A stretch of DNA of 11,579 bases from Candidatus Iainarchaeum sp. (GTDB lineage Archaea > Iainarchaeota > Iainarchaeia > Iainarchaeales > JAFCCW01), in assembly GCA_017609985.1 (NCBI GenBank), contig JAFCCW010000021.1, positions 1 to 11,579 on the forward strand, read 5' to 3'. The translations under genes and the position numbers were made by a program. Below the pieces are notes generated by a model, which saw only the letters and a list, made by a program, of their open reading frames with translations, had not been told where the DNA came from and made no database searches. Of this stretch, positions 2,340-11,386 are shown in pieces (position 1 is the first letter of the stretch; the number at the start of each line of letters is the position of its first letter).

Positions 2340-3842
2340 ATGAGTTTTTCATTCCACAGCTCGCAGGAATTTGTAAAAGACATAAACGACAGTTTTTCTT
2401 TCACTGATTTAAAGCCAACTCTGCGCGTAGGCGTAACAGAAAAATGCAACCTCAAATGCCCATACTGCCACAGGGAAGGCATTACAGAAAAATATACAAA
2501 TTACCTTAGCCCCGAAGAATATTCTATAATAGCCAATACATTCCACAGCCTTGGACTATCAAAAGTAAAATTTACCGGCGGAGAGCCCTTGCTTAGAAAA
2601 GACCTTGCCAAAATAGTGCAGGCTTTTATGCAAGCTGGCTTTGAAGACCTTTCTATGATAACAAATGGAACCCTGTTAAACAGGAAAAATCTGCTTGAAC
2701 TCAAAGAAGCAGGTCTTAATAGAATAACAATAAGCTTTGATTCCCTTAAACAAAAGAAAGCAACACAGATTAGCGGATGCGACTGCCTTGAAAAGGTTCT
2801 GGAAAACGTATCTCTTTCAAGAGAGTTCTTTGAAGACGTTAAAGTAAATTGTGTTATTCTGCCAGGAATAAATTTTCCAAGCGAAATACTGGACTTCGCC
2901 AACTTTTGTAGGGACAATGACGTAACCCTCAAATTACTTTCAAGGCTGTCAGATGATACACCCTACCCTTTATGCAGCCAGGCTTTAGTAGAGATAAAAC
3001 TCTATAAACACTTGAAGAGAAAAGAGATCTGCACTGAAGGCGTTGTCCCGGCAACAAAATATTTCTTCTCAGACGGAACAAAGGTAGAAGTAAACGATTT
3101 CAGAAGCAAGGAATACAGACGAATAATAAGCAACAACAAGTCCTGTGAATCCTGTGAACTAAAAGAACAGTGTGTTGAGGGGCCTTACGCAATAAGAGTT
3201 ATGCCTGACGGAGAAATAAAGCCGTGCCTTTTGAAAAAGGATAACACAATCAAATTCCGCAAGGTAACCAAAAGCAGAACAAAACTAATCTGTTTAACTG
3301 GGCTGGCCAGTTCAGGAAAAAGCAATTTCACGAAAACAGCAGAAAACATGTTTAACATCAAAAACGTTTACGTTGGAAAAATTCTAAAAGACAAAGCAGG
3401 GGAAACACATGCAAAACCCACTTATGATAATGTAATGACTGTAAGCAAAGAAATTTACAAAGAGAAAGGCCCTTTGGGAACAATTTTAGAAAGCTTCCAT
3501 GCAACTCAGGGAAATATCACAGATGAAAAAGTAATTATACTTGATTCTGTTAGGAGCGTTGAAGAATACAATTTCCTCAAACAGTTCTTCAAAACATACC
3601 TTGTAGGCGTAATCTGCAACAGGAGTGAGAGATTCAAAAGGGCAAAAAAAGGATACTTTAAATTAACAAAAGACCAGCTAATAAAAAGAGACAAGCTCGA
3701 ATTGGGGGAAGAAAATGACGAACCCTCATTCAACATCGGAGAACTTTTAGGACACGTTGATTACTACATTTTAGGCGAATCACAAAACTTCAAACAGGAA
3801 ACAGCAGAAATAATAAAGGCGATAATGAATGATAGAAGTTGA
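2340..3842 (+). CDS. MoaA-like radical SAM enzyme fused to a C-terminal P-loop NMP/dephospho-CoA-kinase-like (UPF0200-like) domain
   Basis: rSAM motifs LRVGVTEKCNLKCPYC (CxxxCxxC), KFTGGEPLLR, ITNG, ISFDSL, VKVN and CESC...IRVMPDGEIKPCL. From about aa 315: LICLTGLASSGKS (Walker A), ILDSVRSVEE, RFKR, RDKLELG, VDYYI. Confidence 0.88.
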   Translation: MSFSFHSSQEFVKDINDSFSFTDLKPTLRVGVTEKCNLKCPYCHREGITEKYTNYLSPEEYSIIANTFHSLGLSKVKFTGGEPLLRKDLAKIVQAFMQAGFEDLSMITNGTLLNRKNLLELKEAGLNRITISFDSLKQKKATQISGCDCLEKVLENVSLSREFFEDVKVNCVILPGINFPSEILDFANFCRDNDVTLKLLSRLSDDTPYPLCSQALVEIKLYKHLKRKEICTEGVVPATKYFFSDGTKVEVNDFRSKEYRRIISNNKSCESCELKEQCVEGPYAIRVMPDGEIKPCLLKKDNTIKFRKVTKSRTKLICLTGLASSGKSNFTKTAENMFNIKNVYVGKILKDKAGETHAKPTYDNVMTVSKEIYKEKGPLGTILESFHATQGNITDEKVIILDSVRSVEEYNFLKQFFKTYLVGVICNRSERFKRAKKGYFKLTKDQLIKRDKLELGEENDEPSFNIGELLGHVDYYILGESQNFKQETAEIIKAIMNDRS

Positions 3843-4374
3843 AATCAGAACGATTGTAGGCAATTCTGAAGAAGCAGGAAAAAAGCTGCAAAAATATCCC
3901 CTAATTAAAAACAAGATGCAGACGGATGAATACTTTTCTCATCCTTCAAGGGACTTTTACGCAAACCCTATTCTGAGAGAGTATGTAAGAATAAGGCATG
4001 GCAAAAACCCTACTTTTGAGTACCACAAAGCCCACATAAAAAACGGGAAAAAGACACACTCAGAAGAATTTGAAGTGGCAATAGAAGACGTTAAAAAAAT
4101 GAAGGGAATACTTGAACAGCTTGGATTCAAACCATTTGTAACAGTTAAAAAAGCAAGAAAAACATTTGACTGCGGAAAATTTGAAGCATGCCTTGATACA
4201 ATAGAATCCCTTGGCACTTTCTTGGAAATAGAGGCAAAAGAAAACCTTGGCGGAATAGAAAAAACAAGGCAGGAATGCATAAATTTTCTGAAAAAACTTG
4301 AAATAGAATATGTTCCTGCACCCGACAAAGGCTATCCGGACATGCTTGCCGAAAAAATTACACCAAAACAATAA
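3829..4374 (+). CDS. cyaB: CYTH-domain protein (class IV adenylate cyclase/triphosphate tunnel metalloenzyme family)
   Basis: MIEVEIR (ExExK/R), QTDEYF, VRIR, EEFEV, LGF....VKKAR, LDTIESLGTFLEIE, GYPDML; overlaps the upstream gene by 14 nt. Confidence 0.9.
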   Translation: MIEVEIRTIVGNSEEAGKKLQKYPLIKNKMQTDEYFSHPSRDFYANPILREYVRIRHGKNPTFEYHKAHIKNGKKTHSEEFEVAIEDVKKMKGILEQLGFKPFVTVKKARKTFDCGKFEACLDTIESLGTFLEIEAKENLGGIEKTRQECINFLKKLEIEYVPAPDKGYPDMLAEKITPKQ

Positions 4375-4449
4375 CCAAGCAAAAAAGGCAGAAAACGCCG
4401 ACTAATTCTATAACTAATAATAAAAAGGTCAAGCGAAGAAAGTCATTGA

Positions 4450-4531
4450 GCAGGTGCTTTCCTGCCTGGCTTTAATAGCTCGGGATTGCACCTGCAACCA
4501 GTCAACCACCAGGTTGAAAAAAAATCAACCA
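4450..4531 (+). other. Structured intergenic element (possible cis-regulatory RNA or operator)
   Basis: GCAGGTGC (4450-4457) pairs with GCACCTGC (4488-4495); GGTTGA (4512-4517) is complementary to TCAACC at both 4502-4507 and 4525-4530. Confidence 0.4.
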
Positions 4532-4576
4532 GAAGTATTTGGATAAAAACAAAGCAGAAGTTATTGGGTGAATGAA

Positions 4577-5095
4577 ATGGAACAGCAAGCACTAGAACTA
4601 AAGAAAATTTTCAACGGGATGATTGATAGTTTTGGATTAAACCATGCTCGAGTATACTATATCCTTATTTCAAGCGAAGTAAAAACAGCAAAGCAATTGG
4701 TTCAGGAAACAGGGATCAACCAGGCCACTGTTTACGCCGTTCTGCGTGAGCTCATAAAATGGGATCTAATCCAACAAAGCAACACAAATCCTGCAAGCTA
4801 TTATATTGGAAACCCAATGAAAACATTTGAAAAGCAGGTAAGAAAAAAGGAAAAAATAATTACCGGAAAAAGGAAGCTGCTTGAAGATCTGATTGCTTCA
4901 GATGTTGACGAAAGCGAAAAGTACTTGATTAAAATTGGCAAAGGAGAACAGACAAAACTAGTAAATGTTCTAACGAATAAAGAACTGCGTTATAGAGAGG
5001 AGATGGTTAAGGTTAGAGATAGTTTGGATAAAATGTTGAGAGCTGCCCCGGTTAAGGAAAAAGTTAGCCCTCTTTATTCAACCTACAGGAAATAA
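4577..5095 (+). CDS. TrmB-family transcriptional regulator (wHTH with short C-terminal region)
   Basis: FGLNHARVYYILISSEVKTAKQLVQETGINQATVYAVLRELIKWDLI...NPASYY..NP is a typical TrmB HTH. GGTGA RBS (4567-4571) favours ATG 4577 over GTG 4568. Confidence 0.88.
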   Translation: MEQQALELKKIFNGMIDSFGLNHARVYYILISSEVKTAKQLVQETGINQATVYAVLRELIKWDLIQQSNTNPASYYIGNPMKTFEKQVRKKEKIITGKRKLLEDLIASDVDESEKYLIKIGKGEQTKLVNVLTNKELRYREEMVKVRDSLDKMLRAAPVKEKVSPLYSTYRK

Positions 5096-5118
5096 TTTCA
5101 AAAAAGGAGGTTAACACA

Positions 5119-6444
5119 ATGAAGAGTTCAATATACAATATTTTTGTTCCAACCAAAGACAGTTCAAAGTTTGTTGCATACAACACCCTCAGAGGTAGCA
5201 CAACTATTGTAAACGACGAAGTAAAAAAAGCAATCCAAGGCAATAACTTGCCAGATGATAAAAAATTGTTGGAAAAACTGCAAAAAACTAACCTGGTTGT
5301 TGATGATGAGTCCGATGAAAAAAACCTTTGCAAATACCTCCACAACAAGCACAAGTTTGACAACAGCTACCAGCACTTTTGCGTTATCATTACATATGAC
5401 TGCAATTTCCGCTGCCCCTACTGCTATCAGGGAGCTGACAAAAACAAACACCCTATTTCAGAGGAAATGCTTGAAAAAGTCATAAAATGCATTAAGCGCA
5501 CATGCAAGGAAAGAAAAGCCAAAGACCTTGAAGTCACCTTGTACGGCGGCGAACCATTTATGTTCCCAAAAAAATGCAAAAAGCTTGTTGAAGAAACAAG
5601 CCAATGGGCAAAAGAGAATAACATAATATTCCACTTAAGCGTACTGACAAACGGATCCCTTATAACAAAAGAAATAGCTGAATGGCTCTCAGATTACAAG
5701 GCAAGAATACAGATACCGCTTGACGGATACAAAACAGTTCACGACAAGTACAGATACCACATAGGAAAAAACAAAGGATCATACGAAGACCTCATGCAAA
5801 CATTCAACTATTTTAAGGGAACAGACGCAAGCATTCATCTAAGAATAAGCGTAACAAAAGAAACATATCCAACAATGGGAAAAATGCTTGATGACCTAAA
5901 AGCAAGAGGCCTAACACATTTGCACCCAGACTTTTGTTACATTACAGCGTTTGTTGAAGCATGCAATAGCTTTAGCCCATACTGCCTAAAAGATTCTGAA
6001 CTCTACTCCGTTCTGCCAGAGTTGTGGAAAATGTCAAGAGAAAAAGGCTTCAAAACAGATATGTTGAAACCACAGGTGTCGCCACTGCCCTGTAGCAGCA
6101 TAGCAGACGGAAGCTATGTAATAGACCCAACGGGAAACATTTACAAGTGCTGGGAACTGGTAATACAAAAAGAGCACATCGTGGGAAGAATACTTGACAA
6201 TGGAAAAATGGAACTAACGCCAAAATACTTCGAAACTCTTAGCAGAGACCCAAGTACAATAGAAGACTGTGAAAAATGCAAGTTTCTGCCAGCCTGTTCA
6301 GGAGGGTGCATCTGCAAAGCATGCTGGAACAAAGGAACATACCAAGCAAGTGGTTGTGGAACAGTCAAATTCCTGTTGGTTGAACAACTAAAAGCATACC
6401 TTTTGCAAGAGTACCCAGAAACGTTTAAAACATTACTCGAGTAG
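5119..6444 (+). CDS. Radical SAM/SPASM-domain protein, probable RiPP maturase
   Basis: CNFRCPYC, YGGEP, LTNG, QIPLDG..VHDKYR. SPASM motifs PCSS...IDPTGNIYKCW and CEKCKFLPACSGGC (Cx2Cx5Cx3C). An ~80-aa N-terminal extension (SIYNIFV...YNTLRGS...LEKLQKTNLVV) resembles that of peptide maturases. AGGAGG RBS. Confidence 0.92.
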   Translation: MKSSIYNIFVPTKDSSKFVAYNTLRGSTTIVNDEVKKAIQGNNLPDDKKLLEKLQKTNLVVDDESDEKNLCKYLHNKHKFDNSYQHFCVIITYDCNFRCPYCYQGADKNKHPISEEMLEKVIKCIKRTCKERKAKDLEVTLYGGEPFMFPKKCKKLVEETSQWAKENNIIFHLSVLTNGSLITKEIAEWLSDYKARIQIPLDGYKTVHDKYRYHIGKNKGSYEDLMQTFNYFKGTDASIHLRISVTKETYPTMGKMLDDLKARGLTHLHPDFCYITAFVEACNSFSPYCLKDSELYSVLPELWKMSREKGFKTDMLKPQVSPLPCSSIADGSYVIDPTGNIYKCWELVIQKEHIVGRILDNGKMELTPKYFETLSRDPSTIEDCEKCKFLPACSGGCICKACWNKGTYQASGCGTVKFLLVEQLKAYLLQEYPETFKTLLE

Positions 6445-6452
6445 GTGATACA

Positions 6453-6542
6453 ATGGAAAAGAACCAAAAAGCAAAATTTGAAATTGAGGTCATTGAAGAA
6501 AAATCAAAGCCAAAAATTTCACACTGCTTTGTACTAGTATAA
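6453..6542 (+). CDS. Small ORF (29 aa, MEKNQKAKFEIEVIEEKSKPKISHCFVLV), candidate RiPP precursor peptide
   Basis: Absent from the ORF track. AGGTGAT RBS overlaps the rSAM stop codon; ATG 6453 to TAA 6542 fills the gap between the rSAM and MBL genes; charged leader-like N-terminus and Cys-containing hydrophobic tail. Confidence 0.8.
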   Translation: MEKNQKAKFEIEVIEEKSKPKISHCFVLV

Positions 6543-6555
6543 AAAGTTGAATTGT

Positions 6556-7452
6556 ATGGAACTCAAAAAAATAGATGAGAACATTTCCTACATACCAAAT
6601 CCGTCAAACATAGGAATAATTCAAAATGGAAATAACTGCATACTAATAGATACTGGTTTAGACGCAGATACAGGGAAAAAAATCCTGAAACTCCTTGAAG
6701 AAAACCATCTAAAAGTAAAAGCCATTATCAACACACATGCCCACGCAGACCACTATGGAGGAAACAACACAATCAAAAACAAAACAAAATGCTTAACCTA
6801 TGCGCCAAAAATAGAAGCAAGCACTATAGAAAATCCAATCCTTGAACCCCAAAGCTTCTTTTCGGGGGCCAATCCAATAAAAGAACTAAAAAACAAGTTT
6901 CTAATGGCCGAACCATGCAAAGTAGACCATCAAATTGAAGGTACTGAACTAGAAATAAACGGCCTTTCACTAAAACCAATACAATTACCAGGGCACTCAA
7001 TAAACCAAACAGGCATTGCATTCAACAACAACCTTTTCTGTGCAGACAGCTTCTTCTCAAAAGAAACAATACAAAAACACAAAATCCTCTTCTTTACAAA
7101 CATAGAAGAAACCAAAAAAACACTCAACAAACTAAAAGAAACAAATTACAAATCATACATACCAAGCCACCTGGAACCGATAAGCAACTCAGAAAATCTT
7201 ATTAACGAAAACCTGAAGGCAATAGAAAAAACAGAAACGGACATTTTGGAAACACTGCAAGAAGAAAAAGACATTGAACAAACACTCAAAGACTTAAGCG
7301 ACAAAACAGAAATAAAAATAAAAACAATACAGCAGCACTACTTGCTCAAAACTACAATACTCGCCTACCTTGAATACCTCAACAAAAACAAGCAAGTTGA
7401 AATTAAAACAGAAAACAACAGACTAACCTGGAAAAAGAATACCACCGGCTAA
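6556..7452 (+). CDS. Metallo-beta-lactamase-fold hydrolase
   Basis: ILIDTG, THAHADH (HxHxDH), PGHS, ADS and PSH motifs; ATG 6556 preferred to TTG 6547. Confidence 0.93.
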   Translation: MELKKIDENISYIPNPSNIGIIQNGNNCILIDTGLDADTGKKILKLLEENHLKVKAIINTHAHADHYGGNNTIKNKTKCLTYAPKIEASTIENPILEPQSFFSGANPIKELKNKFLMAEPCKVDHQIEGTELEINGLSLKPIQLPGHSINQTGIAFNNNLFCADSFFSKETIQKHKILFFTNIEETKKTLNKLKETNYKSYIPSHLEPISNSENLINENLKAIEKTETDILETLQEEKDIEQTLKDLSDKTEIKIKTIQQHYLLKTTILAYLEYLNKNKQVEIKTENNRLTWKKNTTG

Positions 7453-7457
7453 AGGCT

Positions 7458-7994
7458 CTATTTCTTCTTTTCATCAACAGAAAAAGAAGCAACCTTGCCA
7501 CCACTCAACCTCAAAACATCACTAACCTGAAGACGCACAAGCTTTGACCTCGAACCACCGCCACACCAAACAGTCTTACGCCTAACAATCCCCCTATCAA
7601 TAAAAGTGGGCATCTTTCTCTTATGCCCAATAGGAGGAACACCCCCTGTAGGAAAACCAGAAGCCCTCTCAGCAACCTCAACAGGAGCAGTCTTCACAGA
7701 CTTAAAACCAGTAACCTTCTGCAAAAGATGCCTATTGACCTGAAGATCAGCCCTCAAAACAGCCACAAAAGGCTTATCAAACTCATTAACAAAGACAAGC
7801 GTCTTAGCAAAACTCTTCAAAGGAATGCCAGTAACTCTCGAAGCCTCAACCGCATGCTTAGTAACCTTCTTAGACAAAAACTCACAAGCAACATGATTCC
7901 TAATAAGAAAAGCCTTCAAATTAGACCTGGGCGAAACTCTCTTAACCTTAGGCGTAGGCCTTACTCTAACAGCTTTCTTCTTGTGAACAACCAC
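7458..7994 (-). CDS. YbaK/ProX-family aminoacyl-tRNA deacylase (editing domain)
   Basis: FAKTLVF (conserved Lys), SGFPTGGVPPIG (GxxxP), FID, VWCGGGS. AGGTG RBS favours GTG 7994 over 8003. Confidence 0.9.
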   Translation of the reverse strand: MVVHKKKAVRVRPTPKVKRVSPRSNLKAFLIRNHVACEFLSKKVTKHAVEASRVTGIPLKSFAKTLVFVNEFDKPFVAVLRADLQVNRHLLQKVTGFKSVKTAPVEVAERASGFPTGGVPPIGHKRKMPTFIDRGIVRRKTVWCGGGSRSKLVRLQVSDVLRLSGGKVASFSVDEKKK

Positions 7995-8099
7995 AAAAAA
8001 CACCTATAACAAAATAGTGATTTTCAACTTATTAATCCTTTTGAAAAAACCAAAAAACATTATTAGAGGAAAAAACAAGTAAAATAAGGAGAAACATAA

Positions 8100-8768: not shown

Positions 8769-9413
8769 ATGACTAAGTCATTGACAGGGCAGGAATTCTC
8801 CTTGTATAGCTTATTGTTCTTGAAGTTTGGAAGCAAGCAGTTTGGTTTGGATAGTGTGCGCTGGTACTTTAGCAAACAGACTTTGAAGAAGTTAATTTTT
8901 AATTTGGTTAAATCAGGCTGGTTAAAAAGAGCTGGCAGAGGAGTTTATGCCTGCATTGCCCCAAGAGAAGCGGTAAGCGCCTTGTTTGAACCAAAGGTTG
9001 AGAAAACATTGCAGGAATCCAAGTTGAGTTACTGCTTTACAAAAGCCAGTGCTGCTGAAGTCTGGAGCAACGAAACTTACATTCAGAGAAGCTGGGAGTA
9101 CAGCCCGTTTTTCGTAAAGGTTTTGAGGAAGGAATTGGGTAAGTGGAAGCAGTTTTTGGATTCAAGAGAAGTAAAGTTTTTTGTTAAAAAGCCATCAAAC
9201 ACCATTGGAGAATTTGTCGTATTGGTTCCAGTTGCTTCAATGAAAATAGATTTTCATGACAGGAAGCCTGTTGAGGCATTGCAGGAAACGATTGCGTTTT
9301 GTGAGGCAAACAAGGACAGCTTTGAATACGTCTTGGCCTACTTGTCCAACAAATACAAGAAGAAAACCTCTGCGTCAAAAGAAATGTTGATTAAGGCGAG
9401 GGAAGCATTATGA
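8769..9413 (+). CDS. AbiEi-like type IV TA antitoxin (N-terminal wHTH)
   Basis: LKKLIFNLVKSGWLKRAGRGVY matches the AbiEi-type wHTH (L.K.G.L.R..RG.Y); ATGA overlap with a downstream nucleotidyltransferase. Confidence 0.7.
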   Translation: MTKSLTGQEFSLYSLLFLKFGSKQFGLDSVRWYFSKQTLKKLIFNLVKSGWLKRAGRGVYACIAPREAVSALFEPKVEKTLQESKLSYCFTKASAAEVWSNETYIQRSWEYSPFFVKVLRKELGKWKQFLDSREVKFFVKKPSNTIGEFVVLVPVASMKIDFHDRKPVEALQETIAFCEANKDSFEYVLAYLSNKYKKKTSASKEMLIKAREAL

Positions 9414-10093
9414 TTTTTGAGGAAAGAGAAAAATTCATTTTTTCACTGCTTGAGGGACTAAAAGGCAGAGTTGACTTCGTTGTAATCGGAGGCTATGCAA
9501 TTAACGCTTACACCCTGCCTCGTTTTTCAGTAGACTGTGACCTTGTAGTCAAAGACAAGAAAGCAATGCTTGCAGTCAAAAAAATCCTTGAAACCAATGG
9601 CTTTGCCAAAAAAGCAACAGGTACTTTGCCAGGCTACAAGGGAGAATTCCTCTGCCTTGCAACAAAAAAGCCCGTTATTACAACTTTTGATATTCTGGCT
9701 AGCAACGTTGAAGACAGAATTACTGGAACAATGTTTCCAGCAGAACTCATCTTCAAGAATTCCACAAAAAGAACAATCTTTGGCAAAGGCAGCCCTACAA
9801 AAATTGAAACAAGGGTAGCAGATGCCGAAATGCTTTTCGTGATGAAAGCAGTCAGCTGCAGGAAGCCAGATATCAGGGACGTGTTTATGCTGGCTTCAAC
9901 AAAGCTTGACAAGGAAAAGATTTTGCAAATAACAAAGGAGGTTCCAATTCCGGCAGAAAGCATTGAAAAGATTACCTCAAAAGTTAACTCAAAAGGATTC
10001 AAGGACGCACTACAAGGGGTCTTTGGAATGCTTCCAGAAAAGCAATTTGAAACAAGCAAAAAGAAACTGCTCGCTTTGCTGAAGGGTGTTTAA
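9410..10093 (+). CDS. AbiEii-like Pol-beta superfamily nucleotidyltransferase (type IV TA toxin)
   Basis: FVVIGGYAINAY..PRFSVDCDLVV (GG.A...R.S.DxD) and MKAVSCRKPDIRD (K....R..D..D). Confidence 0.82.
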   Translation: MIFEEREKFIFSLLEGLKGRVDFVVIGGYAINAYTLPRFSVDCDLVVKDKKAMLAVKKILETNGFAKKATGTLPGYKGEFLCLATKKPVITTFDILASNVEDRITGTMFPAELIFKNSTKRTIFGKGSPTKIETRVADAEMLFVMKAVSCRKPDIRDVFMLASTKLDKEKILQITKEVPIPAESIEKITSKVNSKGFKDALQGVFGMLPEKQFETSKKKLLALLKGV

Positions 10094-10139
10094 ACAACGC
10101 CAAAACAATATTAAACAGGATATAACAACAATTGCTTAG

Positions 10140-10754
10140 ATGACCGAAACAAAAGAGGAAATAGGCAACTGCAAAAAGTGTGATAAGATAATTGGCGGAC
10201 ACAATATTTACCTCCATGAGGGTTTTTGTGACAAGTGTTTTTTTGAAGAGTTTTTCCCAGAACCAGATCATGAAAAAGCAAAAAAGGAAATAGAATTCCA
10301 AAGAAGCCATTTAAAACCAGAGCTTCAAAAGTTTCTTGGAAAAAACGAGTCTTTCTTTGAAGAAAAATATGGCTTGAAAAAATATTTTGAAATCCTTGTT
10401 GAAAACAAAAAGGCAATACAATTCGCGTTTTGGATTATCCAACAGGCAAAAACAGAAAAATTTGTCCTTTTCACACTTTACGATGGCATCATAACAAACG
10501 CATCAGAAATTTACAAAAAAGATATTGGAGAAAACTTTCTGAAGACAAAGATTTTTGAAGAATGTGAAGAGATACATACTTCGCAATCACTTATAGATCT
10601 TCAATCGTTTTACATGTTTTCTGGCGAAGGCATGATTTTCTTATCAACAAACAAACAATTGTCAGAAATCATTGAAAGAACAGCAAAAGAACTGAAACTT
10701 GAATACACAGTGGATGAAACTAAAGACTTTGCCAGGCCTGCAGAAAATCATTGA
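10140..10754 (+). CDS. Hypothetical protein with N-terminal Zn-ribbon (Cx2C-x15-Cx2C)
   Basis: CKKC-DKIIGGHNIYLHEGF-CDKC; 204-aa ORF on the same strand as the TA pair. Confidence 0.75.
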   Translation: MTETKEEIGNCKKCDKIIGGHNIYLHEGFCDKCFFEEFFPEPDHEKAKKEIEFQRSHLKPELQKFLGKNESFFEEKYGLKKYFEILVENKKAIQFAFWIIQQAKTEKFVLFTLYDGIITNASEIYKKDIGENFLKTKIFEECEEIHTSQSLIDLQSFYMFSGEGMIFLSTNKQLSEIIERTAKELKLEYTVDETKDFARPAENH

Positions 10755-10785
10755 AGTGAAAACTAATTCGCTACAAACCAGTGCT

Positions 10786-10887
10786 TTAATTAACAACCTT
10801 GCACTTTATAGTTTCTGTATAAAAAATTCAGCCGGCCAATAAGAGGCAGGCGTTTGATTTTGAAGATGAAGCCTACCGGGGGCGCTT
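10786..10887 (+). repeat. 102-bp direct repeat ending in att-like core copy 3
   Basis: About 89% identical to 8618-8719; shares 20 bp (CCTACCGGGGGCGCTTTCTT) with copy 1; followed by a T-tract. Confidence 0.93.
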
Positions 10888-10897
10888 TCTTTTTTTC

Positions 10898-11386
10898 TTA
10901 GTTTTTGAATCTGGGGCCTGTGACCTTTTTTTTCTTTTTCCAGTCTATTGCAATTGAGACCAGCCACAGGATGTTTATTATGGCAAAGGCTACTGCAACA
11001 AGATCTAGCATTCTCCATTCATTGGTGAATCCAAAAAAGAAGGAAAGAAGGCCTGCGAAAAAAGTTGCTACTGCTTTTGTTTTCTGTTTTTTGTAAATCG
11101 CAAAAGCTGTTATAAAGTCAAATGTTCCCAGCAAAAACAAGACAATTCCATTGATTAAGTTTAGGATCATAAACCCTGCTAAAAACAGAACCATTTTTAT
11201 CAAATCTGGCTCTGGAAGGGGTGGCCCAATACCTGACATGGAAACAAAAGAAAAGGCTACAAACAGGATTACTACAATTAAAAGGGAAAAAAACAACAAG
11301 GTCAAAAGCATGGATTTTGCCAGCAGTTTTTTAACTTTTGAAAGTTCTTTTTCCTCACTTTGCTTTTTTTGTGCCAAGGCATTCAC
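10898..11386 (-). CDS. Hypothetical integral membrane protein (about 4 TM helices)
   Basis: Four long hydrophobic segments with Lys-rich N-terminus, loop and C-terminus. Confidence 0.78.
   Translation of the reverse strand: MNALAQKKQSEEKELSKVKKLLAKSMLLTLLFFSLLIVVILFVAFSFVSMSGIGPPLPEPDLIKMVLFLAGFMILNLINGIVLFLLGTFDFITAFAIYKKQKTKAVATFFAGLLSFFFGFTNEWRMLDLVAVAFAIINILWLVSIAIDWKKKKKVTGPRFKN

Follow-up and report, generated by a model that had tools for sequence, protein, structure and literature searches.

A conserved 29-residue partner peptide of an archaeal radical SAM/SPASM enzyme and a candidate peptide-modifying cassette

Our analysis of the window, a stretch of 11,579 nucleotides from Candidatus Iainarchaeum sp. 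(contig JAFCCW010000021.1), indicated that a short open reading frame (ORF) directly behind a radical SAM/SPASM (rSAM) enzyme gene encodes a conserved partner peptide of this enzyme, and that related enzymes carry a homologous peptide as a C-terminal tail. We consider it rather probable that positions 5119-7452 form a three-gene cassette (Table 1), which consists of an rSAM/SPASM maturase, its 29-residue substrate peptide and an MBL/winged-helix hydrolase, and that the chemistry is thioether formation at the Cys of the peptide; the substrate role of the peptide, the thioether, its acceptor atom and the role of the MBL protein are what we infer. If this holds, an rSAM/SPASM family without a curated model would have a supported precursor, and this in archaea with small genomes, a group whose peptide chemistry is nearly unexplored.

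Table 1. Positions of the genes, domains and motifs of the putative cassette in the window
Feature	Position	Strand	Remarks
Shine-Dalgarno-like AGGAGGT	5105..5111	+	7 nt upstream of the rSAM ATG; sequence reading
Radical SAM/SPASM enzyme gene	5119..6444	+	441 aa; split form without tail; stop TAG at 6442-6444
N-terminal RRE-like domain (about residues 1-85)	5119..5373	+	Predicted docking site for the leader part of the peptide
CX3CX2C radical SAM cluster motif (C95/C99/C102)	5401..5424	+	Invariant in 30/30 aligned homologues
SPASM cysteine region	6091..6357	+	C325, C344, C384, C387, C393, C397, C399, C413
Ribosome-binding site AGGTGAT for the peptide gene	6443..6449	+	Overlaps the rSAM stop codon; 3-nt spacing to ATG
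29-aa partner (candidate precursor) peptide gene, stop included	6453..6542	+	Sequence, tail HMM, codon comparison
Leader-like motif FEIEVIEEKSKP, peptide residues 9-20	6477..6512	+	Aligns with the fused tails
Core KISHCFVLV	6513..6539	+	Extreme C-terminus of the peptide; sole Cys25 at 6525-6527
MBL-fold metallohydrolase gene	6556..7452	+	298 aa from ATG 6556; start inferred from where the L115/L035 alignments begin
HAHADH metal motif (HxHxDH type)	6736..6753	+	Sequence reading
Winged-helix C-terminal domain of the MBL protein	7168..7449	+	AF2 pLDDT 90.2

The preliminary description of this DNA had pointed to an ORF of 29 aa located 8 nt past the rSAM stop codon with its own AGGTGAT, and all these features are present in the sequence. 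The encoded peptide, MEKNQKAKFEIEVIEEKSKPKISHCFVLV, ends in ISHCFVLV, and its frame is offset by +2 relative to the rSAM gene. At a GC content of 0.35-0.40 (AT-rich), an ORF of 29 aa by itself could arise by chance; three tests speak against chance. A profile HMM (tail HMM) was built solely from the C-terminal 24 residues of 32 fused homologues. Among 51,234 stop-to-stop ORFs from all six frames of the genome, the sole significant match was C11:6429-6539 (E = 1.5e-8, 35.6 bits; runner-up, E = 1.5), and among 42,332 ORFs from the 167 loci examined, the matches were confined to the loci of the rSAM-peptide family itself. The homology of the peptide to 32 enzyme tails indicates that the ORF is a real gene, and on these sequence comparisons we regard it as genuine, not a chance ORF. 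When the codons were compared with those of a second locus carrying a free peptide (L115), the core (residues 21-29) had four identical, five synonymous and no non-synonymous codons, residues 9-20 had four of each class, and residues 1-8 had one identical, one synonymous and six non-synonymous codons. The remaining five reading frames across the peptide are interrupted by stop codons in the window, in L115 or in both. Purifying selection on the peptide gene is shown at the level of codons.

Among the 33 rSAM relatives P0008-P0040, 32 have a C-terminal tail that ends in HCY[V/T]LV, is homologous to the peptide and is attached via a variable linker; these fused relatives are 42-52% identical to the enzyme of the window. 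The split form is represented by seven distinct proteins (68-100% identity), all of which terminate at 441-445 aa. In a quick tree, the split and fused forms were separate sister clades (SH-aLRT 99 and 100), and the conservation of the peptide, whether free or as an enzyme tail, therefore delineates a compact family of one split and one fused clade. The split form, as found in the window, is probably the older state. Since the peptide is fused to the enzyme in the relatives, pairing of enzyme and peptide is indicated ('Rosetta stone'), which bears out the earlier proposal that the hidden ORF encodes the partner of the rSAM enzyme. At the DNA level, the comparison covered two split loci (the window and L115) and one fused locus (L035). 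The DNA of L115 begins within the rSAM gene, whose product is 74% identical to that of the window; it is followed by AGGTGAT, a TTG start codon, a peptide of 29 aa ending in KISHCFVLV and then the MBL gene as in the window. L115 thus shares the RBS, peptide and MBL layout of the window. The frame offset and the gap differ between the two loci (+2 and 8 nt in the window, +1 and 13 nt in L115), and the 3-nt spacing behind AGGTGAT is identical.

The peptide had also been described as an acidic leader-like part (FEIEVIEE..P) followed by a short His-Cys-Phe core, and both parts are conserved in L115 and homologous to the 32 fused tails. In the fused tails, the aligned counterpart of the leader-like motif FEIEVIEEKSKP reads hydrophobic-x-[LI]-[QE]-x-[IV]-[ED]-G-x-Q-x-P, and the Pro is kept in all 32. 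The core residues H, C, aromatic, L and V are invariant in the 32 fused tails and both free peptides, the aromatic residue beside the Cys being Y in the fused and F in the split forms.

The enzyme matched the radical SAM family of Pfam (PF04055; 64 bits, cut-off 29.5). The SPASM pattern for two auxiliary clusters is CX9-15GX4C ... CX2CX5CX3C ... C, and the enzyme of the window has C325-X13-G-X4-C344, C384-X2-C387-X5-C393-X3-C397 and then C413. The SPASM cysteines, already noticed in the preliminary description, do not vary among the 30 aligned homologues, except for C387, which is retained in the split clade and replaced by His in most fused-clade rows of the alignment. The top NCBIfam model was CefB (NF038107; 336 bits, cut-off 600), aligned over nearly the full length (enzyme residues 1-430 against positions 1-433 of the 444 in the model), followed by TIGR04463 (231 bits, cut-off 525), Clo7bot (192 bits, cut-off 600), geopeptide (165 bits) and PapB (160 bits); all these five families are maturases of Cys-rich peptides or thioether maturases. 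The fused members P0013 and P0033 also stayed below the CefB cut-off (307 and 275 bits). Judged from these scores, which are far below the cut-offs, the family is outside every curated model tested, and it is isolated among 1.84 billion representatives, where its own two clusters scored 791 and 707 bits and the next one 379 bits. The closest solved structure is that of the thioether-forming CteB (5wgg/5why; 82 bits by sequence, Foldseek E = 9.5e-21). A Pfam search at E <= 0.01 gave no match to a PqqD domain in the enzyme.

The enzyme shares with CteB (SCIFF), PapB (ranthipeptides), CefB, TIGR04463 and Clo7bot an RRE-like N-terminal domain, a radical SAM barrel and SPASM, and the substrate of such maturases is likewise a small neighboring Cys peptide with leader and core. 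The peptide of the window differs in having one Cys in a fixed C-terminal hexapeptide instead of many, and in being encoded downstream of the enzyme or fused to it. The features of sacti/ranthipeptide-type maturases, namely CX3CX2C, SPASM, an RRE (in silico) and a linked short Cys peptide, are all found here. The system nevertheless falls outside the individual families: CefB/CefA by score and by its single Cys against a Cys at every fifth residue (according to the family name), PapB (NF047865) with its match over residues 87-406 only and a cut-off of 340 bits, and MftC (TIGR03962) at 59.8 bits. The new RiPP family of the preliminary description stands as an enzyme-peptide family outside the curated models; a released natural product is hypothetical.

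In the AF2 model of the fused homologue P0013 (pLDDT 89.7), the N-terminal domain has three strands followed by three helices, the leader part of the tail forms strands at 442-446 and 449-455 (pLDDT 93-94), and the last four residues have pLDDT below 50. Co-folding of enzyme and peptide, which had been proposed as a check, gave a complex score of 0.82 (best control, 0.36), with at least 83% contact agreement between runs and a partner pLDDT of at least 65. The mark thereby passed was attained by 58 out of 80 solved complexes and by 2 out of 110 mismatched pairs, in a calibration on chains of 30 residues or more and on alignments other than those of this analysis, the peptide having 29 residues. 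The contacts with the lowest error are those between peptide residues 10-16 and enzyme residues 26-32, 35, 53 and 57; more widely, peptide residues 7-26 contact enzyme residues 25-58 and also 317-329, 344-346, 397 and 399, and residues 27-29 lie outside the confident contacts. The leader-like part is thus predicted to dock on the RRE-like domain, with the Cys near the SPASM cysteines, and the models are consistent with the earlier suggestion that the N-terminal extension is an RRE; binding of the leader as an added beta-strand, as expected of an RRE, is seen in silico only. Note that the pass of the complex model may stem from resemblance to the solved maturase-peptide complexes of CteB (5wgg) and SuiB (5v1t).

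The MBL gene lies directly downstream in all three loci with DNA (window, L115 and L035), the protein of the window being 66% and 50% identical to its neighbors in L115 and L035, respectively, and 13 further rSAM homologues were paired with an MBL match on equally sized contigs. The MBL protein is a conserved partner of the rSAM-peptide pair. Its membership in the system, which the preliminary description had left undecided, is supported by these loci, although the family also occurs without the rSAM gene in Clostridia: orthologues were found in 44 of 399 Clostridia genomes, and the 12 of these 44 loci read as DNA had no rSAM gene next to the orthologue. The protein matched Lactamase_B (PF00753; 93 bits), and its winged helix superposed on LACTB2 (4ad9_A; Z = 8.7, rmsd 2.7, 86 aligned, TMq 0.68), TTHA1429 (2zo4; Z = 8.1) and 5u8o, the Z values for 4ad9 and 2zo4 not exceeding those of generic winged-helix regulators, many of which were also among the top matches. 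It is like the LACTB2/TTHA1429-type hydrolases in its HxHxDH motif, Lactamase_B domain and winged helix, and differs from them in its low sequence similarity (E = 1.2e-4 against 4ad9) and in the link to an rSAM-peptide pair, found only in the subfamily of the window. The PqqD domain (PF05402) gave sub-threshold matches in the MBL orthologues of L035 and L117 (E = 0.1 and 0.04, 13-15 bits, cut-off 23.4) and none in the protein of the window; no RRE protein was among the fold matches listed, and PqqB was absent from the best 25 NCBIfam matches.

In the mechanism that we propose, FEIEVIEEKSKP would bind the RRE-like N-terminal domain of the enzyme as a beta-strand, which would bring the core, H-C-(F/Y)-V-L-V-COOH, to the active site, close to the auxiliary Fe-S clusters. 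A hydrogen would be abstracted there by the 5'-deoxyadenosyl radical, and the Cys sulfur would join a core carbon to give a thioether macrocycle (-2 Da); as the acceptor we would guess at the alpha-carbon of the terminal Val, four residues past the Cys and next to the free carboxylate. The MBL/winged-helix protein probably acts hydrolytically on the peptide once it has been modified, and the product is probably a small peptide with a sulfur bridge, of an as yet undescribed kind. In the fused relatives, where this peptide forms the C-terminal end of the enzyme, the enzyme would act on its own tail. Core conservation far above that of typical RiPP cores, and the single product per protein that a fused enzyme would yield, count against the proposal. 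A further point against it is that, as noted earlier for the window, no protease or transporter gene was seen, and the same holds for L115 and L035.

The spacing of the core, C-F-V-L-V-COOH, resembles that of the macrocyclisation by PapB (Eastman, Roberts and Bandarian 2025, PMC12373016), in which Cys and a terminal residue with a free carboxylate are likewise separated by three residues. In that study, PapB removes the hydrogen at the position alpha to the carboxylate, and the bond that results is S-C(alpha); the acceptor must bear a carboxylate and lie C-terminal to the Cys, and the Cys of leader-CSANG is linked in vitro to the alpha-carbon of the C-terminal Gly. The PapB substrate there is engineered, whereas the terminus in the window is, by its sequence, an L-Val; moreover, PapB rejects a C-terminal L-Ala, Lys, Phe, Asn, Ile or Gln and accepts Gly and D- or beta-residues, which counts against L-Val as the acceptor unless the enzyme of the window differs. 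If the crosslink does target the C-terminal residue, the family would offer a natural means of closing thioether macrocycles at the C-terminus of L-peptides and a natural counterpart of a reaction so far known, as far as this source goes, only with engineered PapB substrates. The fused/split architecture (32 fused and 7 split members in sister clades) is of the borosin type: in accounts of borosins, the core is fused to the C-terminus of the enzyme (OphMA-type) or encoded by a separate precursor gene ('split borosin'). Borosin enzymes are, in contrast, SAM-dependent backbone N-methyltransferases, not radical SAM enzymes, and have no sequence relation to that of the window. If the proposal holds, enzyme-substrate fusion would also reach into radical SAM chemistry. 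The literature searches turned up no radical SAM enzyme that naturally carries its precursor as a fusion. Since enzyme and substrate are one protein in the fused form, the chemistry could be read from its own C-terminal peptide, making it a convenient experimental object. A bolder version is speculative, and we give it rather little credence: this would be the first natural self-modifying radical SAM family with a substrate tail, forming an S-C(alpha) ring at the last residue, and HC(Y/F)VLV, released or processed by the MBL protein, would be a conserved cofactor or signal of DPANN-type archaea, not a variable antibiotic.

The same pair may instead perform another core chemistry, such as a mycofactocin-like oxidative decarboxylation or C-C crosslink, formation of a Phe/Tyr/His cyclophane, epimerisation or Cys oxidation, with a cofactor-like product released by the MBL protein. 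In the mycofactocin (MftA/MftB/MftC) and PQQ (PqqA/PqqE/PqqB) pathways, an rSAM/SPASM enzyme with an RRE acts on a peptide of about 30 aa at its invariant C-terminal residues, and there is a partner of metallohydrolase fold, as the MBL protein may be here; the PQQ gene set in particular also pairs a small peptide with an rSAM/SPASM enzyme and includes an MBL-fold protein. The core of the window's peptide is a different sequence, and its MBL protein has an MBL plus winged-helix build like that of LACTB2/TTHA1429. The invariant core, exactly C-terminal in all 32 tails and both free peptides, resembles cofactor precursors more than antibiotics, and the aromatic residue next to the Cys is invariant, but so is the Cys itself. 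Cyclophane, mycofactocin and sulfatase-maturase models do score weakly (YhhB 82, MftC 60 and anSME 95 bits), but MftC is far below its cut-off of 265, mycofactocin precursors have a C-terminal Tyr that this peptide lacks, and the five best families as well as the best structure point to Cys-rich peptides and thioethers. We consider another chemistry unlikely. Still less likely, in our view, is that tail and peptide have a regulatory or structural role, as a plug that mimics a substrate or as the source of a Cys ligand for an Fe-S cluster, and that the real substrate is elsewhere. Fusion would make a true substrate single-turnover in 32 relatives, yet true-substrate cores fused to the enzyme are described for borosins in the accounts mentioned; the extreme core conservation would suit such a role, but the tail shows the division into leader and core known from RiPP precursors, and in the models its leader part docks on the RRE-like domain. 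His at the second Cys of CX2CX5CX3C in most of the fused clade leaves room for another ligand to complete the cluster site, but the split clade retains C387 and still keeps the peptide Cys. The loci have no protease or exporter, but beside the enzyme no other conserved candidate substrate gene was found.

That the 29-aa ORF is a chance frame, or a frameshift or assembly leftover of a fused gene that is not separately translated, we regard as hardly credible and largely refuted by the homologues and L115. It lies in a different frame immediately 3' of the rSAM gene, most relatives are fused, and the assembly is in 37 contigs and 86.6% complete. However, the seven split proteins all end within the same five residues, AGGTGAT and its spacing are the same in both split loci despite the different offsets and gaps, and the two clades are separate with high support. 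Split enzymes end in YPE.F, an ending common to many outgroup C-termini (by eye) and missing from the fused forms.

The preliminary description placed the system under the control of the upstream TrmB-type gene, which encodes a helix-turn-helix (HTH) protein of 175 aa (PF01978; 39 bits, cut-off 25.6). Membership in the full sugar-sensing TrmB family, with HTH and C-terminal effector domain, was rejected, the HTH alone being found; the full-length models gave 16 bits for TrmBL1 (cut-off 650) and 15.5 bits for TrmBL2 (cut-off 530). As a feature of the family, the control is not supported. Upstream of the fused locus L035 there is an unrelated ORF of 172 aa with no Pfam match and no similarity, the closest homologues (73-75% identity) are in genomes G041 and G106, which lack this rSAM, and have other genes downstream, and none of 14 homologues was on a contig equal in size to that of any rSAM homologue. 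By these comparisons, the TrmB-type gene is not a conserved part of the rSAM-peptide family, and it is doubtful that it is an integral regulator of an rSAM-peptide operon. It ends 23 nt upstream of the rSAM start on the same strand, so that co-transcription or local autoregulation is possible in the genome of the window.

The cassette lies on a contig of an archaeal assembly (1.16 Mb, 37 contigs, 86.6% complete), and its features are summarized in the table. The hidden ORF proposed as a peptide precursor in the preliminary description was exact, since the rSAM stop, the AGGTGAT and the ATG were read off the sequence as described, and the translation is MEKNQKAKFEIEVIEEKSKPKISHCFVLV. The layout of the window is a conventional split arrangement, in which the peptide has its own gene downstream of the enzyme gene. 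Note that an unusual gene pair is located just upstream of the cassette: the gene at 2340-3842 (+) encodes a second radical SAM protein (500 aa; PF04055, 98 bits) with a fused P-loop AAA_18-like domain and overlaps the CYTH/CyaB-like gene by 14 nt.

Features of the cassette and its immediate neighbours
Feature	Position	Strand	Remark
CYTH/CyaB-like gene	3829-4374	+	TIGR00318, 101 bits (CYTH/class IV adenylate cyclase-like)
175-aa protein with TrmB-type HTH	4568-5095	+	
Radical SAM/SPASM protein, 441 aa	5119-6444	+	stop TAG 6442-6444
AGGTGAT before the peptide start	6443-6449	+	
29-aa ORF (peptide)	6453-6542	+	ATG at 6453
MBL-fold protein	ORF from 6547, end 7452	+	ATG 6556 = likely start
YbaK-like deacylase	7458-8003	-	convergent with the cassette

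A search of 5.8 billion proteins with the enzyme gave two groups of close relatives: six proteins with 68-85% identity to the window enzyme and a similar length (441-445 aa), and 33 proteins with 42-52% identity, mostly of 463-499 aa. The alignment showed that the C-terminal extension of the longer homologues consists of a variable linker (about 20 residues) and a conserved stretch with HCYVLV at the extreme C-terminus. The ending HCY[V/T]LV was present in 32 of these 33 proteins (P0008-P0040); the sole exception, P0028, bears the source label 'partial' and ends early, and another homologue, P0041, is truncated even earlier. Among the 32 fused tails, Pro -10, His -6, Cys -5, Tyr -4, Leu -2 and Val -1 are invariant, position -8 is always Met or Ile, and Val -3 and Gly -14 are found in 31 and 28 tails, respectively. 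The window peptide, FEIEVIEEKSKPKISHCFVLV, matches the consensus of the tail profile (lelqiIEGrqePkMSHCYVLV) residue by residue. This profile was trained on the fused tails alone, excluding the split-clade sequences, and it detected the 29-aa ORF among the 51,234 stop-to-stop ORFs of the whole genome (E 1.5e-8), without a second match below E 1.5. Among 42,332 ORFs from 167 loci, it matched only the fused locus L035 (a training member), the window copies and a further split locus, L115, and none of the approximately 110 loci with more distant relatives of the rSAM contained a tail-like peptide. The check for short ORFs beside rSAM homologues thus favoured the proposed precursor, with a matching peptide in L115 and the same stretch fused to nearly all of the longer relatives. 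These comparisons identify the window peptide as the detached tail of the fused relatives. Three loci of the family (window, L115 and L035) were read as DNA.

The enzyme was found at E <= 1e-40 in two of 215 species genomes of the phylum, namely the window's own and that containing L115 (G118), whose enzyme is 74% identical to that of the window. In L115, AAGGTGAT comes after the rSAM stop, and three bases separate it from the TTG start of a 29-codon ORF with the conceptual translation LENTNKKSFKIEIIEEYSNPKISHCFVLV (the TTG start would give Met in vivo), and the MBL gene is located 12 nt after this ORF. A programmed frameshift or a broken gene as the source of the separate peptide was ruled out: the gap between the rSAM stop and the peptide is 8 nt in the window versus 13 nt in L115, the frame offset is +2 versus +1, so that the two loci share no frameshift site, and each peptide ORF has its own RBS. 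An origin of the cassette from foreign DNA was also considered, and the GC content, which is even across the cassette (0.35-0.40), gave no such signal. Comparing the peptide codons of the two split loci, residues 21-29 (the putative core, KISHCFVLV) have four identical, five synonymous and no non-synonymous codons, residues 9-20 (the leader-like part) have four of each, and residues 1-8 have one, one and six. A gradient of this kind is expected for a peptide with leader and core that evolves under purifying selection.

The family forms a compact group at a clear distance from other proteins, because the bit scores of its profile against 1.84 billion cluster representatives fall from 791 (fused representative) and 707 (split) to 379 for the next protein. 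We reconstructed a quick maximum likelihood tree of seven split, 31 fused and 12 outgroup sequences, omitting P0016, P0028 and P0041 (short or truncated); only the enzyme bodies, with the tails removed, entered the tree. The split and fused sequences were reciprocally monophyletic sisters (SH-aLRT 99 and 100), and a single change of state is enough to account for them, although the tree itself does not polarise this change. The split enzymes carry ...YLLQEYPE.F... at the C-terminus, a sequence missing from the fused forms, and YPE.F-type endings were seen by eye (uncounted) in many of the outgroup C-termini inspected; we therefore infer that the split state probably came first, with one origin of the fusion. 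The source labels of the members are Micrarchaeota, Aenigmarchaeota and one Gammaproteobacteria, and the neighbour genes of L035 look archaeal by eye. No orthologue of the enzyme was found in 60 genomes of the same order (best match, 25% identity), and a scan of genome contigs gave only two distant rSAMs (27% and 23% identity) and no family member. Among 80 loci retained from metagenome contigs with overly general patterns, L035 was the only family member, and the 28 loci from viral contigs (top identity, 27%) contained none. Downstream of the fused locus L035, a 634-aa ORF (9359-11263, -) resembles, by eye, an MCM-type helicase with an intein-like insert.

In the homologue alignment, the CX3CX2C motif (C95, C99 and C102) and nine more cysteines are invariant. 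The curated families that score highest with the window enzyme all act as maturases on Cys-containing peptides, and each match stayed below the cut-off of its family (bits/cut-off: CefB, 336/600; TIGR04463, 231/525; Clo7bot, 192/600; geopeptide, 165/400; PapB, 160/340). Fused members gave similar sub-cut-off scores, and by these scores the enzyme belongs to no curated family. The closest solved structure, by both sequence and fold, is CteB (SCIFF thioether synthase), followed by TigE, anSME, SuiB and ChlB. The second Cys of the SPASM motif CX2CX5CX3C (window 6091-6357), C387, is retained in the split clade and is replaced, mostly by His, in the fused clade (H392 of P0013, the L035 protein; at least 90% conserved there), and because of this exchange an auxiliary cluster may have different ligands in split and fused enzymes.

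We also modelled the interaction of the enzyme and the peptide. In the AlphaFold2 model of P0013 (31-sequence alignment; mean pLDDT 89.7), the N-terminal domain is strand-strand-strand-helix-helix-helix, the leader-like part of the tail forms two strands (442-446 and 449-455, pLDDT 93-94), and the final four residues have pLDDT < 50. In line with the precursor proposal, co-folding of the window enzyme with the free peptide scored 0.82, and the highest score among three controls was 0.36; these figures express model confidence and not measurement. Of 80 solved complexes, 58 reached this mark, compared with two of 110 mismatched pairs, counts that hold only roughly here (own alignment, chain < 30 residues), and the pass may reflect likeness to the solved complexes of CteB and SuiB with their peptides. 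The runs share at least 83% of contacts (partner pLDDT at least 65). In this complex, the peptide contacts enzyme residues 26-32 through its residues 10-16; the part up to its residue 26 extends to enzyme positions 317-329, 344-346, 397 and 399 in the SPASM cysteine region, as well as to 140, 174, 198, 242, 271 and 273. Both models support, short of demonstrating, a RiPP recognition element (RRE)-type binding of the leader and a placement of Cys25 in the active site on the side of the auxiliary clusters.

By analogy, the system would work like a sacti/ranthipeptide-type RiPP system; we infer its chemistry, the fate of its product and the role of the MBL protein. A Cys thioether crosslink in the core is favoured because of the nearest enzyme families, the invariant single Cys and the end of the core, which has a free carboxylate and always lies exactly four residues after this Cys. 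The relevant passages of PMC12373016 describe PapB as requiring a carboxylate-bearing acceptor C-terminal to Cys and abstracting the hydrogen alpha to the carboxylate; in vitro, the ring of leader-CSANG was closed at the alpha-carbon of its C-terminal Gly, and a C-terminal amide abolished the reaction. This Cys-X3-terminus geometry recurs in C-F-V-L-V-COOH and would explain why the motif is never found away from the terminus. The same passages report that PapB rejected the C-terminal L-residues tested; weighing this, we therefore regard the thioether as about evenly poised and the C-terminal alpha-carbon as its acceptor as rather unlikely.

The membership of the MBL gene, left undecided in the preliminary description, can be partly settled. 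It directly follows the peptide or tail in all three loci read as DNA, and the identities to the window MBL protein (66% in L115 and 50% in L035) parallel those of the enzyme (74% and 48%). Among 120 listed MBL homologues, 13 have a 'longest contig' size identical to that of an rSAM homologue (split clade: 12508, 8819, 9919 and 27706; fused clade: 29683, 7395, 31056, 2550, 5934, 14400, 52592, 7598 and 22417), which is a proxy for, not proof of, both genes being on one contig. On the other side, the MBL family is wider than the rSAM-peptide system: it comprises 438 proteins at E <= 1e-20, and full-length orthologues (32-46% identity) occur in 44 of 399 sampled Clostridia genomes. In the 12 of these 44 loci examined, neither an rSAM relative (best tblastn E 0.51) nor a tail-like ORF within 1.5 kb was found. 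In the Clostridia loci L116-L127, the MBL/winged-helix orthologues are in repeated housekeeping-looking neighbourhoods (by eye without a family scan: D-Ala-D-Ala ligase-like Ddl, glutamate racemase-like MurI, PP-loop ATPase-like, YpeB-like and arginyl-tRNA synthetase-like), which hints at a general function of this subfamily. The C-terminal 94 residues were modelled as a winged helix (pLDDT 90.2), which superposes on the C-terminal domains of the MBL proteins LACTB2, TTHA1429 and 5u8o, but no better than on generic regulators; Pfam PqqD matches were sub-threshold and the fold matches are generic winged-helix, and an RRE function of this domain is only a lead. We conclude that the MBL protein is a recruited, conserved partner, which, as a guess, would release the peptide hydrolytically or tailor it.

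The TrmB control proposed at the outset was not borne out as a feature of the family. The TrmB-type gene ends 23 nt upstream of the rSAM start on the same strand. Directly upstream of the fused rSAM in L035 is an unrelated 172-aa ORF (4394-4912, +), which matched no Pfam family and does not resemble the window TrmB. The enzyme is absent from the genomes with the closest TrmB homologues (G041 and G106; 73-75% identity), in which other genes lie downstream of TrmB, and none of 14 TrmB homologues shares a longest-contig size with any rSAM homologue. TrmB is a neighbour in the window, not a family feature.

A search of the main texts of the literature found neither the family, an HC(Y/F)VLV-type motif nor a natural rSAM-precursor fusion; supplementary lists of RRE-associated rSAMs could include members. 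In the relevant passages, the word 'fused' in PMC10288494 denotes RRE domains or MBP tags, and PMC13692751 concerns a different archaeal system, CrpC/CrpA. The fused and split pairing of enzyme and peptide parallels that of borosins. The family is of interest for its validated hidden precursor, its fused relatives, a C-terminal core with a single Cys and its DPANN-type hosts.

Elsewhere in the window, a 416-aa protein (998-2248, -) has a C-terminal winged-helix (ArsR/HTH_5-type) domain as its only recognised domain. The overlapping genes 8769-9413 (+) and 9410-10093 (+), with weak sub-threshold AbiEi-like and AbiEii/nucleotidyltransferase-like Pfam matches, may be a type IV toxin-antitoxin pair.
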